Source of the DNA: a virus
Lineage: Duplodnaviria; Caudoviricetes
Virus record (IMG/VR): IMGVR_UViG_3300028388_001804
Span: 1 to 52,939 of that record
Strand: one strand, 5' to 3'
Length of the DNA stretch: 52,939 nt
Shown here: positions 36,337-43,007 of the stretch, piece after piece
Position numbering within the stretch: position 1 is the first letter of the stretch
Layout of the letters: each line of letters opens with the position of its first letter
The notes under the pieces: generated by a model
Database searches by the model: none
Told to the model about the DNA's origin: nothing
Seen by the model: the letters and a program-made list of their open reading frames with translations, nothing else
Position numbers and translations under genes: made by a program

Positions 36337-37319
36337 TAACTAAGTATTTTAAAACTTGCTGGCTTTAAGCCGTTATTTTGCATGTTAAGTTGTTGCTGGA
36401 ATCCTCCGGCAACAGAGTTACTCTTAAATTTATCAGAGTAAAAATTTCTCAGTAAATTAGAATTATTGGTATTATTTTGACTAGAATTAGGTTCTATATA
36501 CTTACCATCTTTTATCCTAGAGCCAAATCTTAGAAAGTGTACAAATAACTCAGGACTACTTTGAATTGTATCCATGAGTTCTTGTAATTTATTTCCTGTA
36601 AATTGACTTAATAATTCTGATTTAACACGAGGGCTAAATTCTTTATTATTATTAACAAGTTCAATAACCTTAGAGCTAAAAGTTCTAGCCTCGGTTTCAG
36701 CTCTTTCTTTATTCAGTCGTTGGTTATTTAACTCTTCTTGTTCTTTTGCTTTTTTTTCTAAAAGCAAGGCTTCTTTTCTTTTTGAAGCTTTATCTATTAA
36801 TCTGTTTGAAGATTCTAAACTATCTAATAATGTATTAATTTCTTCGTCTGTAGCATCAGGAAGAAGATTTTTATAGTCATTTTCTAAAAAAGATCTTGCT
36901 GAATCAGCGTTAGAAACATCTACAGATTCTACTGACACTTTTTCTCGGACATTAGAAAAGAAATTACTTAGTTCTTCTAATGTAGCATTTTCTGACAAGC
37001 TTGCAGCATACTCAAATAAACTTTTAGCTACTGGAGGTAAAGATTCAACAACTTTATTCCTATAATACTCAGGAAGCTTATTTAAAGCTTCATCTAAAGT
37101 TTCTAACTTGCCATCAAAGTTTTCAATTGCAGGTATTGCATTTTTTTCTAAAAGTACATTATAAATACCCGTAGCCATATCAGGAGCATCTTGCGATGTT
37201 GTTGTAGTAGGCTGTTCACTTAAATCTTGTTCAAGTTCTTTAAACAAATCATCTGATAATGTTATTCCTTGGACCTCCTTATTTTCTTCTGATGTAGGAG
37301 TGTTATTATTGTTTTCCAT
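36336..37319 (-). CDS. Scaffolding-like protein (crAss gene 77-like)
   Basis: Acidic, coiled-coil, located between portal and MCP. Confidence 0.65.
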   Translation of the reverse strand: MENNNNTPTSEENKEVQGITLSDDLFKELEQDLSEQPTTTTSQDAPDMATGIYNVLLEKNAIPAIENFDGKLETLDEALNKLPEYYRNKVVESLPPVAKSLFEYAASLSENATLEELSNFFSNVREKVSVESVDVSNADSARSFLENDYKNLLPDATDEEINTLLDSLESSNRLIDKASKRKEALLLEKKAKEQEELNNQRLNKERAETEARTFSSKVIELVNNNKEFSPRVKSELLSQFTGNKLQELMDTIQSSPELFVHFLRFGSRIKDGKYIEPNSSQNNTNNSNLLRNFYSDKFKSNSVAGGFQQQLNMQNNGLKPASFKILS

Positions 37320-39792
37320 TATTTATTTTCTGATTTTCTAGTTCAATTTTATTATGATGTTCGTAAGTCTTATGGTCTAACTCCAGTTGTTTTTCTTCTA
37401 AAGAAACTTCAGACTTCATCATTTCAGTTTTTCTTCTTTCTATCTCTTTTACGACAATTTTTTCAATCTCATGTTTCTGATGATCTTCTCTAAGTATATT
37501 TTGCTGTTCTACAAGCTCTTTCTGAGCTTTACTTTGAGCTTCTTGCATTTCTTTTAATCTTTTAGCTCTTTTGTTAGCTTCCTCTTCAATAGCTGCATGT
37601 ATCTCTGAAGCAGAGGCGTTGTGTGTCATTAGCTTAACTAAGCGAGAAACAGATTCAATACCTTCTCCTGCATTTTGAGCAAATGCGTGAACTAATTGCA
37701 TCATAGTTTCTGTATATCTACTGCTAGAATCAGAAGAAGACAGCCAGAGTCCAAAGTCGTTGTAAGATAAATGATCTTCAGTTATTTTAAATATCACTTT
37801 ATTGCCTTCACTGGTAACATAAGTCATATACTGAGCAGTTTCTCCATTTTCAAATCTTTCTCTAATACAGATTCGATAAAGTTCTAACCAATAGTTTATC
37901 GTTCTTCTCCAAAAATTTAATGTTTTTTCAAAGTAAACTTTGGTCATTGTATAGGATCTTTGAATAGCTTCATTATCTGAAGACGCTGTAACTCCTTGTG
38001 TGAAATGAGCTTCTCTTTGAGGAGATATACCCATAGTATAACTTATTTCTCTATCAAGAAGACTAATTAAATTTTGTAGTGCTAGTATTTCATTTGCACT
38101 CCCAAGTTTAAATACTTGTCCCCCCGGAGTCCTAGTATGAGTTACTATAGCATCATCTGATGTCTGAGATCCTGAGTATAGAGATACATTATGATCTTCT
38201 AACATTCTAAACCAAGCAATTGTAGGGTCTTGAATATAATTACCGTCAGCATCTTTTCCAAGATCATCAGGTATTTGATCTACATCCACTGAATGAATAA
38301 AAGATTTATATTTAGATATTTCTTTATTTTGAATAAGTTTTAAATAAAATATTTGAAACATAATTGGGATAACTCTTTCAACTATTGATACAGCGTTAGA
38401 GTTTCTTTCTTCAAGAAGAACTCCATGGTATGATAAAGAAAAAGAACTAAACGGTCTTTCCATATTCAGAGGTTGTATCGGGACTTGACGACATTTCTTG
38501 AATATTTTACCGTCTATAACAAACATTTCATAAGCTCTTGGAATCCAATGTTCCTCTAGTTGAAAATATTGTTCTAATTCATCGTCATACCAATTGTAAG
38601 ATGTATATACATCTCCATATACATTTGTAGTCTTTTCTTTTTTAGCTTTTTTAGGTATCTTGTATGCTTCTGAAAATACTTTTACATCTTTATCTCCATC
38701 ATCATTATAAGATATTCTAAAATATATTTTATCGTAAGCTTTAAATTCTACATGAGATACCCAGTATAAATCTGAATTGCTATTATATCTAGCAGTTGAA
38801 TTGGATTGATATAATCCTGTATTTCTATCAGACCATGTATTTACAGTGTTTGCGTCGTATATAGACCATTCATAAGCACCTAAACTGTTTTGAATAGGTT
38901 CAGCTTTAGAAAATATATTATGTCTTTTATCGTAATTAGATATTAATCCTGAATCAGTACCAAGCTCTTTTAATTCTTCTTCTGTTAAATCTAAGGAGTC
39001 TATAAGTTCTGATTTGGTCATGACCGTGTTATATTTAAACCATTCTGATTTAGATATAAATTCTTGATCTGGAGATTTTTTGTAATTAACTCTTAAAGGA
39101 TTAATTACATCAATAACTGGCATACCATGTTTTATACTAACTTTAGTGTATGCTTCATTAGATATAACAGCATCAATCCAAGTATCTGTAGCTTTTTTAG
39201 CTACATCTTGACTGTATAAACATAGTTTTACTCCGTGAGACATGAACACTTCCCAATCTGTTAAAAAATCTTGTTGTATAACTTCTGCAGGAGAAGGCTG
39301 AGTAGTATTTTCCTCTAAATACGTTTGTTTTTCAAGAGGATTTAAATTCTCAGCTTCAAGTTCATTTTGTAGTTTTTCTTTTAAAGCATTTTTAAAATGT
39401 TTCTTTTTCAGCTCATTTTTCTTTTTAAAAGCTGAAGAAGTCAAAGGAACTACAATAAATTTATTATTTGATTGGATCATATTTAAAAAATCTCCTGCTA
39501 GAACATTAACTTTAGTATATATTTTATTATTATACGGCAATATACTTTCTACATTTATAGCTTCGGACTTTTCTCCTGTTAAAGATGAATACTGTTTTAT
39601 TAAATTTTTATATGTAGAAATATTATTATTTAATATTTCATAACATTGTTTTTTTCTTTCGTAATCTGGAGTTTCTGTAAAAGAAGAAGATATGTTGATG
39701 TCCCAAAAAGTTTTAAACCATTGATTGTCGTTAGCATGTTTTTCTTTACCTGAAACTTTTAAACTGAAAAAATTATCTGTATTTATTTTCAT
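37306..39792 (-). CDS. Portal protein
   Basis: 828 aa directly after TerL; KVNVLAGD, VINPL, MGISPQRE motifs and a coiled-coil C-terminus. Confidence 0.85.
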   Translation of the reverse strand: MKINTDNFFSLKVSGKEKHANDNQWFKTFWDINISSSFTETPDYERKKQCYEILNNNISTYKNLIKQYSSLTGEKSEAINVESILPYNNKIYTKVNVLAGDFLNMIQSNNKFIVVPLTSSAFKKKNELKKKHFKNALKEKLQNELEAENLNPLEKQTYLEENTTQPSPAEVIQQDFLTDWEVFMSHGVKLCLYSQDVAKKATDTWIDAVISNEAYTKVSIKHGMPVIDVINPLRVNYKKSPDQEFISKSEWFKYNTVMTKSELIDSLDLTEEELKELGTDSGLISNYDKRHNIFSKAEPIQNSLGAYEWSIYDANTVNTWSDRNTGLYQSNSTARYNSNSDLYWVSHVEFKAYDKIYFRISYNDDGDKDVKVFSEAYKIPKKAKKEKTTNVYGDVYTSYNWYDDELEQYFQLEEHWIPRAYEMFVIDGKIFKKCRQVPIQPLNMERPFSSFSLSYHGVLLEERNSNAVSIVERVIPIMFQIFYLKLIQNKEISKYKSFIHSVDVDQIPDDLGKDADGNYIQDPTIAWFRMLEDHNVSLYSGSQTSDDAIVTHTRTPGGQVFKLGSANEILALQNLISLLDREISYTMGISPQREAHFTQGVTASSDNEAIQRSYTMTKVYFEKTLNFWRRTINYWLELYRICIRERFENGETAQYMTYVTSEGNKVIFKITEDHLSYNDFGLWLSSSDSSSRYTETMMQLVHAFAQNAGEGIESVSRLVKLMTHNASASEIHAAIEEEANKRAKRLKEMQEAQSKAQKELVEQQNILREDHQKHEIEKIVVKEIERRKTEMMKSEVSLEEKQLELDHKTYEHHNKIELENQKINNGKQ

Positions 39793-41560
39793 TATATAAT
39801 TTTTTACTCATTGATATTATAGCAAGTTTATTTTTTGTTTTTTTAATTGCTTTAAGTTCAGCTGAATGTCTATCTTCTTTTATCCCTATAGCACACCCTA
39901 CTAAACTCATAACAGCATCGTAATTTCCTGAATCAAGTTCAAAACTTGCTATTTGTTTTAATGTAAAAATACAAGGTAAAGTTTCTATTACCAGTCTTTC
40001 TGTTCCATCAGATAGTTTAACTGTTTCTAATAACAAATCTCTTAAAGTTTCTAAGTATTGAATTTTAGAAACTCTATTTCCTACCATATATCCATATTGC
40101 GTTACTTTTTGCTGTTTAATAGAACTACCTACAGATTTACTAGGTCTTAAAGCTAATAATGAAGATTTATTTTTTCGGTAATAATAATCTTTACAAGCTT
40201 GTCCTCTGTTTGCTTCATAATGCAACCCTCTAGTAGGATTGCCATATAAAGCTAGAAGTTTTTCTTGGTTTTGATAGTACTCTTCTTTACCGTTAAAAGG
40301 TTTGCCTATGTATGTAGCTACAAGAGGAGATTTTTTCATAAATGTACTCCAATATTTAGGATTCATCATAACATGAGTAGATCCTAAAGACCCACCGTTT
40401 TCTGTGTTATCAGATACATAAGGGTCATGTCCAATATATTTATACATATCATCAGGAATAGTGCCATTTATTTTAACAGGAGGTTCGTACATTACAATAG
40501 CTCCTGCTAGGTCGTCTCTAGCATTCCAATTTTTTATATCGTAAAAAGGTTCAGATTTAAAGTCTACATTATATTTAATTTTATAATCTTTTGTAGAATC
40601 CCATGTTAAAGTAATAGGAGTACCTATAGTCTTGTAAAGAGAATTTTTTTCAAGTTGAGATATTCTTTCTATTGCAAGATCAGAAGGTAGTATAGACCCT
40701 TTAGAATTAACCCACATATCTGAAATTTTAACAGGATAATTCATTTTGTGCATACGAAGTGCTAAAGGATTGTTTGACTTAGAATGCTTATCTTCCTGTT
40801 TTGCAACAGCAGCTTTTGCCTTTTCAAAATCAAGATTACCATTCTCATCTCTGTAGTCATGAATAAAAGCTTGATATGCAGGAATAAAAAATCCTACTGG
40901 CTTATCAGTTTTTTCCCATATATCTTCATAGCTTACTATATTATAAGCTTCTGTAGATGTAAACATTTCTTTAGATGCAAGAATTGTTTCCATATGTCCA
41001 GAAGTTCCTAAAAATATTTGCACTCCAAATTGATCTTTTGGATCTGGAGTTACAGATACAGTTGCCATATTAGATCTATAAACTTTTCTCACATTTGCAA
41101 CTAAACCAACTTCTTCAATAATAGAAGTTACATATCGACCACCTGCCGCTGCTTCAGCTCCATCTTTTTTCTTAGAAGAATATAGTATATGGTATAAAGC
41201 AGATTGAGTGCCGTAACCATCAATCCATCGACCTCTCACTTTCTTCTTATAATTATGTCTCCACCCTTTAGTTTCTTTATTACCTGATTTAGTAGATCCC
41301 ATCATATCTTTGAAAAAAGGATTTGGTCTATAGTCTTGGTCGGTAGGTTTACCCCATACACCAAGATCTTGATTGTGTGCAAATTCATTCATACACTCAA
41401 CCATTTTATTTATAAACTCACCTGATTTTTTAGAATCTGATGAACCCACTGCAACGTGTATTCTATTCGGATTTTTAATAGATTCTTCTGTATAATATTT
41501 AGCTGAATCAAACACAAGATCATGCAGACCTTCTTCTAACGATATTTTATAACTTTTTCC
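39773..41560 (-). CDS. terL: Terminase large subunit, exon 2
   Basis: The frame extends 45 nt upstream of the track start to GGA AAA AGT (GKS). Contains Walker B IIEEVG, coupling motif FLGTSG, and nuclease motifs IGHDPY, YEAN, GNYDAV. Confidence 0.9.
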   Translation of the reverse strand, partial: GKSYKISLEEGLHDLVFDSAKYYTEESIKNPNRIHVAVGSSDSKKSGEFINKMVECMNEFAHNQDLGVWGKPTDQDYRPNPFFKDMMGSTKSGNKETKGWRHNYKKKVRGRWIDGYGTQSALYHILYSSKKKDGAEAAAGGRYVTSIIEEVGLVANVRKVYRSNMATVSVTPDPKDQFGVQIFLGTSGHMETILASKEMFTSTEAYNIVSYEDIWEKTDKPVGFFIPAYQAFIHDYRDENGNLDFEKAKAAVAKQEDKHSKSNNPLALRMHKMNYPVKISDMWVNSKGSILPSDLAIERISQLEKNSLYKTIGTPITLTWDSTKDYKIKYNVDFKSEPFYDIKNWNARDDLAGAIVMYEPPVKINGTIPDDMYKYIGHDPYVSDNTENGGSLGSTHVMMNPKYWSTFMKKSPLVATYIGKPFNGKEEYYQNQEKLLALYGNPTRGLHYEANRGQACKDYYYRKNKSSLLALRPSKSVGSSIKQQKVTQYGYMVGNRVSKIQYLETLRDLLLETVKLSDGTERLVIETLPCIFTLKQIASFELDSGNYDAVMSLVGCAIGIKEDRHSAELKAIKKTKNKLAIISMSKKLYNENKYR

Positions 41561-42461
41561 CTTTGTGGATCATATCATTTCCTACAACTCTACTTGTTTA
41601 GGAATTATGCGCTGTTTAAGTTTTAATTTGATTTTATACTGCATGGAAGGATGAATATAAGGCTCTATTATCTTAGAGAACTTTTTAAACTCTTTAGTAC
41701 CCATAGCCAATCTGGTGAATTGTTTATCTTTATGTATATTCCATTTAATTCCCCATCTTTCTTGAAAGTATTTTACAATAATTTCGTTACATTCTCGGCT
41801 AATGTAAGTGTTTAAAGTACAATGTACTTTAGTATACACACCATTACGAGAATAATGAGATAATGATCCATCATCCATATACCAAATAGCTAACTCTAAA
41901 GGCGATAATTTATTTAATACTCTCCTTGTTATTGCTTTTTTCCCGTTTCGATATAACAGATTATATAACGGTTTTAAAACTTTCTTATTACATTTTTCAT
42001 ACTGTAAAGCAGTAATATTGCTATACCCACTATTTTTATAAATAGTATAATAAGAAGTTCTAGGAGTTTTAGAGAGTATTTGTTCTAATTTTTTAGCCTT
42101 CCAATGAAAATATTCACTTTGTTTCGAAGAATGTTTCATTAGAAATCTGTATCGAATATATTTTTTCTGTATGACTCCTTTTGAAATGCACCCGTCCCCA
42201 ATTGCACATCCTAGTATAAATCTTTTTTCTTCTTTTGTCATAACCTTATGGTTATATTTAATAATTTAAAACTTAATGATCTCTGAACGTTCGTCTTATT
42301 TTCACTTAGACGCTTCGCTGCTGATTGTACGATAAGAATAAATCTTCAAGCGTGCCATATAAGATTTCTCTTTCTGTTTTAGCTTTATTCTTTTAGCTGT
42401 AGTTTCCAGCAATTCACATAATATTATATCTTTATATTTCTATAAAGGAGGGCAGAATTTT
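41561..42461 (-). ncRNA. Group I self-splicing intron (901 nt) in terL
   Basis: Exon GGGGGU pairs with GCCCUC (P1 with U.G). P2 is CUUUAUA-GAAA-UAUAAAG. P=GAAUUGCUGGAAA, Q=AAUCAGCAG, R=GUUCAGAGAUCA, S=AUGAUAUGAUCC, P7=GAUCA/UGAUC, terminal G at 41561. Removal restores Walker A GTRGG|GKS in frame. Confidence 0.92.
41582..42241 (-). CDS. Intron-encoded double-motif LAGLIDADG homing endonuclease
   Basis: FILGCAIGDGCI and LAIWYMDDGSL motifs and C-terminal PYIHPSMQYK (LAGLIDADG_2 type). Lies between the R and S elements. Confidence 0.9.
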   Translation of the reverse strand: MTKEEKRFILGCAIGDGCISKGVIQKKYIRYRFLMKHSSKQSEYFHWKAKKLEQILSKTPRTSYYTIYKNSGYSNITALQYEKCNKKVLKPLYNLLYRNGKKAITRRVLNKLSPLELAIWYMDDGSLSHYSRNGVYTKVHCTLNTYISRECNEIIVKYFQERWGIKWNIHKDKQFTRLAMGTKEFKKFSKIIEPYIHPSMQYKIKLKLKQRIIPKQVEL

Positions 42462-43007
42462 ACCCCCACGAGTGCCAAGTATAAAAAAATTCTTAGCACC
42501 ATTTAAATATAAAGGAACACCTTTTGGTTTATCATGTAATTTATACAAATATTGTTTAGGCGGTACATAAGTTTTCCAAGAACCGTCAGGTTTTTTTAAA
42601 TAAGGTAAATGTCTTTTTGGTATATCTTCTTCACTAAAAGCAGTTGTAATACCTTCATAACAAGTGTATTCTGTATCATCTTTAAACCCAGAAAACCCTC
42701 TGGCTATGAGCAGTCCATAGCTCATAGTCCAATCAACATCTCTCATTACAGGTCTGATGAGTTTACGTCCTTTTGTAAACTCATCCACATCAACAATAAC
42801 ACACATATTATGGTACCACTGCATTTTACCGCTGCAATATCTGTATCCATTATTTTCTTTAGCCCAATAACCTTCTATAAATCTTCTCTTTAACTTAGAC
42901 CAGTAATCGACATACCTTAGTTCATCCGCAGGATTTATTTTTTCAAAAGAATCAATTAACCAAGTATTCCTGTTTTCTATCTGAACCCAGTAGTCTTTAT
43001 CTAACAT
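42462..43007 (-). CDS. terL: Terminase large subunit, exon 1
   Basis: YW...KRRFIEGYW, RPVMRDVDW; ends at the first half of Walker A (FFILGTRGG). The spliced product would be 777 aa. Confidence 0.9.

Follow-up and report, generated by a model that had tools for sequence, protein, structure and literature searches.

The window analysed here, a stretch of 52,939 nucleotides (nt) of a tailed virus (IMG/VR record IMGVR_UViG_3300028388_001804), carries on its minus strand the large terminase gene (TerL) of a crAss-related phage, interrupted within the Walker A motif (P-loop) by a 901-nt group I intron that ends without a P9 hairpin. Exon 1 (42462..43007, ending in ...LGTRGG) matches the terminase large subunit family phrog_6681 with E 4e-06, the open reading frame (ORF) that spans it running from 43007 to 42432 and matching the N-terminal part of TerL, and exon 2 (39773..41560, starting with GKSY) matches the same family with E 3.7e-46. 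Searches with exon 2 returned 76 homologous proteins at E <= 1e-10, of which 14 that are uninterrupted were taken for an alignment of both exons (A1); both exons are complete and can be aligned with their homologues over the entire length. The P-loop, R-G-x-G-K-[ST], is gap-free and identically spaced in 14/14 of the uninterrupted proteins (RGGGK in 13/14, RGSGK in 1/14), in agreement with a preliminary description of this locus, which held that the Walker A motif forces the 3' splice site. At the nucleotide level two junctions restore the P-loop, so that the junction is fixed within 1 nt, and one of the two, the junction of the preliminary description, has a U before the 5' site and a G before the 3' site. 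Because the protein junction and the U/G rule leave one choice, the intron is bounded at 42461-41561, and the RNA around it reads ...CGU GGG GGU / AAAAUUCUGCCCUCC ... GAAAUGAUAUGAUCCACAAAG / GGA AAA AGU. A P-loop split at this point is unworkable as two separate polypeptides, and stop codons of the exon frame inside the insert show that it is not an intein.

Within the intron (41561..42461) the P, Q, R and S motifs occur once each, in order, on the minus strand, to which all coordinates below refer. The internal guide sequence (42448..42457) comprises UUCU (42457-42454), the P10 strand, and GCCCUC (42453-42448), the P1 strand; the latter pairs with GGGGGU of exon 1 (42467-42462), placing U 42462 opposite G 42453 as the U-G pair of P1, and UUCU pairs over 4 bp with GGAA, the first four bases of exon 2, to form P10. 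There follow the P2 hairpin (42430..42447, CUUUAUA-GAAA-UAUAAAG, 7 bp with a GAAA loop), the P3 5' strand AUUAUGUG (42415..42422, pairing 8/8 with 41611-41604), a region of J3/4, P4 (UGCUGG/UCAGCA) and an extended P5 with a 9-bp P5a, a GAAA-capped P5b and P5c (42317..42414, with the P element at 42414-42406 and the Q element at 42326-42317), the P6 hairpin CGUCU...AGACG (42292..42312), and the R element GUUCAGAGAUCA (42277..42288), which contains the P7 5' strand GAUCA (42281-42277). The site at which relatives have the P7.1 and P7.2 hairpins holds one 5-bp hairpin, UAACC-AUAA-GGUUA (42241..42254), which ends at the first base of the start codon of an intronic ORF; the hairpin includes a purine stretch, AAGG, and might restrict translation of the homing endonuclease. 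The 3' core reads ACAGCGC AUAAU UCCUAAACAAGUAGAGUUGUAGGA AAUGAUA UGAUC CACAAAG, and in it the P3 3' strand (P3', CGCAUAAU, 41604..41611) follows the AGCGC anchor of the family, P8 (41580..41603) consists of UCCU/AGGA and ACAA/UUGU with an AA bulge in the minimum-free-energy fold of the ORF-less core, and J8/7 (AAUGAUA, 41573..41579) forms the 5' part of the S element.

The last 21 nt of the intron (41581-41561) read G AAAUGAUA UGAUC CACAAAG and run directly into GGA AAA AGU from 41560. The ten bases GAUAUGAUCC stand where the family S element GAUAUAGUC[CU] sits. As the preliminary description had it, UGAUC (41568..41572) is the 3' strand of P7 (P7'): it is the sole UGAUC in the intron, is the sole candidate preceded by GAUA, and is exactly complementary to GAUCA. 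The tail that follows, CACAAAG (41561..41567), comprises a 6-nt linker free of G and the last intron base, G 41561 (omega-G). With only these 7 nt between P7' and exon 2 a hairpin cannot fit, and the central claim of the preliminary description, that P9 is missing from the intron, held. A complement of at least 5 nt to the tail was not found within the intron, and neither was a different 3' splice site or a second S element followed by a normal P9, the two observations that the preliminary description had named as contradicting it.

The intronic ORF (41582..42241, 219 aa, phrog_11023) encodes a LAGLIDADG protein that matches Pfam PF03161 (LAGLIDADG_2) with E 1.4e-31 and 110 bits (cut-off 25), over positions 3-168 of the 168-position profile. 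Both LAGLIDADG-type motifs are intact with their acidic residues (...AIGDG... and ...YMDDG...), as expected of a predicted homing endonuclease that is active rather than a pure maturase. The placement of P3' and P8 at the anchor puts the ORF outside L8, between P7 and P3', at the P7.1/P7.2 site of the relatives. Its final ~30 nt encode P3' and P8, and its UAG stop codon falls in the 3' strand of P8; overlap between ORFs and core elements is known from passages of a review of group I introns (PMC3984707).

Rfam searches of the whole window at the gathering threshold, and of 41300-42700 at E <= 10, gave no group I match. When the 5' half of the intron was searched alone, RF00028 matched over model positions 1-153 as a 3'-truncated hit (18.9 bits, E 0.008 in a 246-nt search) whose alignment assigns P1, P2, the P3 5' strand, P4, P5, P6 and R as read here, and the 3' 91 nt alone gave no RF00028 match. 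In the covariance-model check proposed in the preliminary description the 5' half therefore stays below the 50-bit gathering threshold and the 3' half has no match; the intron falls under the threshold because the 660-nt ORF splits its core. A blastn search with the intron led to an intron in a DNA polymerase gene (L001; MT838267), to which the J3/4-P4-P5 region is 73% identical, and a 15-mer spanning the P3 5' strand, J3/4 and P4 has matches in at least 119 viral contigs. Six ORF-less members, among ten sources searched, score 74-101 bits on RF00028, and we conclude that the window intron belongs to a large, bona fide family of phage group I introns. Subgroup IA2 is defined by two extra hairpins, P7.1 and P7.2, between P7 and P3'. 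The relatives show this arrangement, with two hairpins at that position, and the Rfam alignment has an insert there; P7.1 and P7.2 are also named as class features in the review passages cited above (PMC3984707).

In these relatives the 3' elements come in a fixed order: an AG[CU]GC anchor, the P3 3' strand, the P8 hairpin, GA[AU]GAUAUAGUC[CU], and P9. P3 at the anchor position forms at least 7 of 8 pairs in 64/66 members, and in a control that combined 5' and 3' strands taken from different introns, 4 of the 5 variable positions paired in 8.4% of combinations and 5/5 never. A full-length MAFFT alignment of ORF-bearing and ORF-less introns misaligned the 3' ends and was excluded from the pair counts. 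Among 125 distinct pattern hits, R could be located in 90 and R together with S in 86; when the loop size is relaxed, 81/86 have a fully paired stem of 5 bp or more no further than 8 nt from P7', and in 52/86 a hairpin with a GNRA loop starts within that distance. The five members that have no such stem are the window intron, L025, L086, L094 and L131, of which L086 has a 7-bp GAAA hairpin with one mismatch and L094 a possible long-range stem. Across 34 relatives 95% of the P9 cells pair and 6/7 pairs change on both sides, and since these rows were selected for having the hairpin, it is the covariation alone that is informative. P9 is part of the RF00028 consensus, at model positions 238-251, and no counterpart is seen in the window intron.

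A P5 motif, CC[UC][UA]AG...[UA]UGG, which we take to resemble the classical GAAA receptor, occurs in 17 members, 15 of which were scored with a GAAA L9; the window intron, L025 and L063 (see below) have neither this receptor-like motif nor a GAAA L9. A separate subclass (L067, L083, L092, L095, L127, L134, L136, L140 and L157) combines a P9 of 6-7 bp and a 14-18 nt loop starting AUAUAA, GUAUAA or AUAAC with a short P5 hairpin, and may make an L9-P5 contact other than the GNRA type. L175, whose apparent sharing of the P7 variant of the window is a pattern-matching artefact, is a regular intron of the family that has P9 and carries its ORF in P6.

A covariance model (R1) built from the P3'-to-P9 segment of the 34 relatives found no match in the window with default filters; with filters off, its best full-length placement was 41615-41562 and skipped the final 28 model positions (those for the end of S, J7/9 and P9). 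Within the intron only P2, at the 5' end, matches the hairpin part of R1 well (14.5 bits). The P2 hairpin (42430-42447, 18 nt) is letter for letter identical to the P9 hairpin of L091, probably by chance. That P2 is a relocated P9 was considered and rejected as not demonstrable, a 7-bp GNRA hairpin of the form CU...AG being the general P2 of the family.

A homologue of the window intron came from a survey of 57 related TerL loci, in 14 of which the matches to exon 1 and exon 2 are separated by ~1 kb at the P-loop; 11 distinct inserts were inspected. In 10 of the 11, located at two positions, the exon frame continues over the part inspected and the insert ends in HN, so that they look like inteins. 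These intein-like inserts (L004, L013, L015, L019/L020/L052, L021/L022, L024, L037, L038, L044 and L055) sit after GGGK or before RGGGKS. The remaining one, L025 (genome IMGVR_UViG_3300038701_001599), is a group I intron with a LAGLIDADG ORF in the TerL gene of another phage, and a third copy with the same tail, L182, is a near-copy of L025 from a metagenome. A pattern specific to this clade retrieved only the L025 contig from viral contigs and only L182 from metagenome contigs. The insertion sites lie one Gly codon apart within three tandem GGN codons (RGG/GKS in the window, RG/GGKS, 3 nt upstream, in L025), and P1 and P10 are re-matched to each site (42462/41560 in the window, 3039/3995 in L025). 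The P-loop codons of TerL are a hot spot for mobile elements, with group I introns at two positions 3 nt apart, and the one-codon offset of the homologous introns could reflect intron sliding or misaligned homing repair. A further TerL relative, L040, has a second ~0.9 kb interruption deeper within the gene (1033-1916, at ~residue 145-196 of the exon 2 query). The closest named phage to the window by TerL is Cellulophaga phage phi14:2 (31% identity), and in the window the two packaging genes overlap at 39773-39792, where the start of the portal gene (37306-39792, phrog_6547) lies 20 nt ahead of the stop codon of TerL.

The window and L025/L182 are 46% identical in TerL, and the ORFs of the window and L025, both intact, are 54% identical (E 1e-74). 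In L025 the guide, UUUCCGUU followed by GCCUC, pairs with GAGGU of exon 1 (P1) and with GGCGGAAA of exon 2 (P10, 8 bp), so that the P10 recognised in the preliminary description as UUCU/GGAA has a matching counterpart at a different exon 2 start. P7' of L025 is UAGUC, followed by only CAAAAUUACG (10 nt), without P9. Of 60 pairs compared in 11 helices, 35 are identical in the two introns, 22 differ in both bases and still pair, 2 differ in one base and 1 is a non-pair. The covarying helices include P3, P5, P6 (GGCCU/AGGUC in L025), P7 and P8, and the counterpart of the window P2 is UUUAGUA-GAAA-UACUAAA. P8 has the same design in L025 (AUCU/AGAU and AGUC/GACU, with an AA bulge), and P7 of the window, GAUCA/UGAUC against GACUA/UAGUC in the family, has two pairs exchanged in a compensatory manner, while its first two pairs (G-C, A-U) are retained. 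Over P3' and P8 the RNA pairs are conserved between the window and L025; the C-terminal residues that the ORF encodes there are not. The P7.1/P7.2 site of L025 has two hairpins, as in the relatives. The internal loop in P5 of the window was considered as a cryptic tetraloop receptor and rejected, as L025 has only a 3-nt bulge there. The 22 compensatory changes, with P1 and P10 each tracking their own exons, argue that both ribozymes have been under selection for one shared fold without P9.

L063 (8066-8318; identical copy L185) probably represents a further, independent case without P9. It is a ~250-nt ORF-less intron in a glycosyltransferase gene and reaches 76 bits on RF00028. Its upstream exon closes with ...SDHP and one additional base, and exon 2 continues (L)SPSGVGSQ; because this spacing equals that of an uninterrupted Flavobacterium-phage homologue, the intron end is placed at GUCC AACAAAG, with the 3' site 8 nt past P7'. 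The Rfam alignment forces P9 of L063 onto exon 2, where a 6-bp hairpin spans the splice junction; as this hairpin could act in the precursor, we regard the case as probable only. R1 aligns both L025 and L063 with a local end in place of its P9 part (26 bits each). A 17-mer from the L063 tail has one identical copy (L185) and four chance matches. L063 seems to be without P2 as well as P9, and related introns at its insertion site have a GAAA-capped P9 (L116) or a 7-bp triloop hairpin (L145). In a tree of 23 5' cores, based on a short alignment with a midpoint root, the window groups with L025 and L182 (90/90) in what is hereafter the TerL clade, which stands beside the P9-bearing L113 and L001 in a starred clade (95/94) that excludes L063; given the starred branches, the no-P9 label must change at least twice. 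L113 resides in the same genome as L025 (IMGVR_UViG_3300038701_001599), a P9-bearing ORF-less intron and a P9-less TerL intron forming a matched pair.

Taken together, these data point to a phage group I intron, IA2-like and functional, from which P9 has been lost along with the P5 motif that accompanies a GAAA-capped P9 in its relatives, a reading to which we give a probability of about 0.75. Several points weigh against it. Splicing is deduced only from conservation, and the 3' assignment in the window comes from complementarity and comparison rather than a significant model score: R1 scores 0.4 bits at the 3' domain (E about 1), the 5' half reaches 18.9 bits against an RF00028 gathering score of 50, and the 3' half has no match. 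P10 of the window is only 4 bp, one pair being G-U, and P5 contains an A-C mismatch. The helices were delimited by hand, and the register of P2, P5 and P8a, hence part of the 22 double changes, is our own reading. Finally, the rule of a tether ending at the first G, set out below, is drawn from two to three lineages, two of them related.

In the mechanism that we propose, an exogenous G would attack after U 42462 of the P1 U-G pair, and in the second step omega-G (41561) would enter the G site of P7 directly, on a tether of six A and C residues with no competing G; P10 (UUCU/GGAA) would then position exon 2 for ligation, restoring the RGGGKS P-loop. The linker between P7' and omega-G is 6 nt in the window, 9 nt in L025 and 7 nt in L063, and since none contains a G, omega-G is in each the first G after P7. 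If the hairpin were cut cleanly out of an L001-like end, a tail of about this length would remain. In place of the L9-P5 clamp, the L2 GAAA loop and the P5a-b-c arm would probably stabilise the fold as a whole, perhaps aided by proteins of the cell or of the intron itself, and the conserved CUAAA/UAG bulge in P8 is a further possible stabiliser. A broader proposition, which we consider quite doubtful, is that P9 was lost at least twice in the family, that each time the 3' site came to be set by whichever G follows P7 first, on a short tether that has no other G, together with P10, and that in the TerL clade the clamp was replaced by other means. Such a replacement could be docking of the L2 GAAA loop on the AA-bulged P8 (CUAAA/UAG) as its receptor, or a maturase function of the LAGLIDADG protein; if true, nature would here have put a protein or a different RNA contact in the place of a near-universal ribozyme element.

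Dependence of the P9-less ribozyme on its LAGLIDADG protein, as a maturase standing in for the L9-P5 clamp, is partly compatible with loss of P9 from a functional intron and, though unlikely, is the alternative that we take most seriously. An intact LAGLIDADG_2 ORF has been kept in both P9-less TerL introns, and passages of one report describe some phage introns that splice in vivo and not in vitro (PMC11878797). Against this, L063/L185 has no ORF, yet scores well on RF00028 and has its 3' site 8 nt after P7', so that, as a probable P9-less intron, it indicates that a protein encoded in cis is no general requirement. The conserved acidic residues of both motifs fit an active endonuclease, and the ORF C-terminus has diverged between the window and L025 while the RNA pairs beneath it persist.

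We consider it very improbable that an equivalent of P9 lies hidden, whether behind another S element or 3' site, in exon 2 or ORF sequence, or in trans. The junction-spanning hairpin of L063, onto which Rfam forces P9, would fit such an equivalent, and the authors of work on the Prasinoderma mitochondrial intron raise a P9 supplied in trans for their own case (PMC3873408, in the passages available). The window intron, however, has a single UGAUC, a single candidate preceded by GAUA and no tail complement of at least 5 nt, the hairpin part of R1 matches only P2, and any later 3' site would remove conserved TerL residues. Tail and exon 2 moreover fold like their shuffles (z -0.37 for the window, -0.69 for L025 and 0.08 for L063, against -3.41 for a P9-bearing relative). 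Even less credible is a decaying, non-splicing remnant in a TerL copy or contig that is not functional: the contig is a fragment with an estimated completeness of 48%, and the window has a unique P7 variant, the P5 mismatch and no clear P7.1, but its TerL exons align at full length with their homologues, the LAGLIDADG ORF is intact, the P7 variant is a perfect double compensatory swap, and the same architecture recurs in L025 and L182 across the protein divergence given above (46% identity in TerL, 54% in the ORF).

A contiguous and conserved intron without P9, anchored by protein sequence, would show that P9 is dispensable in nature, and would define a minimal natural 3' domain of P7', 6-9 nt free of G and omega-G. 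Pairs of introns with and without P9, in one genome (L113/L025) or at one insertion site (L116/L063), permit a direct comparison of folding and splice-site choice. Covariance-model screens can overlook such introns, as the lack of an Rfam match in the window illustrates, which is relevant to the annotation of intron-rich crAss-like phages, and short natural 3' ends may interest engineers of compact ribozymes.

Among known systems, the closest in structure are the P9-bearing relatives L113 and L001, which share with the window the P3/J3-4/P4 15-mer, the Q, R and S elements, the extended P5 arm, the AGCGC anchor and the P7.1/P7.2 site, but have a 7-8 bp GAAA-loop P9 right after P7', where the window has 7 nt and L025 10 nt. 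P9, with its L9-P5 contact, is treated as a standard part of the group I fold. The sunY (nrdD) intron of phage T4, a phage intron of subgroup IA2, defines its 3' site by omega-G, P9.0 and P10; shortened versions without most of the 3' terminal domain reportedly stay active, as do engineered deletion ribozymes derived from sunY and Tetrahymena that lack 3' peripheral helices. The sunY short forms would make a natural P9-less form mechanistically plausible. The natural sunY intron has P9, P9.0, P9.1 and P9.2, and its minimal forms are man-made, whereas the minimal 3' end in the window is natural and conserved.

The compact bacterial ribozyme from the Azoarcus tRNA-Ile gene is described, in passages of one study, as held by two tetraloop clamps, L2-P8/P8a and L9-P5/P5a (PMC4333387); the window shares the L2 GAAA loop and P8, AA-bulged in the window, but is without P9 and the L9-P5 clamp that Azoarcus has. 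A review of group I introns lists P1-P10, and in its passages P2 alone is named as sometimes absent (PMC3984707). A literature search for natural P9-less group I introns, in which subscription journals were not covered, returned one relevant report, on the trans-spliced mitochondrial rnl intron of Prasinoderma coloniale, whose model without P9 is called 'very unusual' by its authors in the passages available (PMC3873408). That intron is of subgroup IB, organellar and in pieces, and a missing third piece could supply P9 (PMC3873408); the window intron is contiguous, with a 3' end fixed by coding sequence. In crAss-like phages TerL typically carries an intein and LAGLIDADG proteins are intron-encoded, according to passages of Yutin et al. 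(2021; PMC7886860), and the window matches this setting of a Crassvirales-type phage with mobile elements in core genes; in those passages introns were found through protein domains and no ribozyme structures are given. Set beside these systems, the window intron is a structural variant new within a known ribozyme class, one that is rare among its relatives and has been conserved in phages that have diverged from one another.

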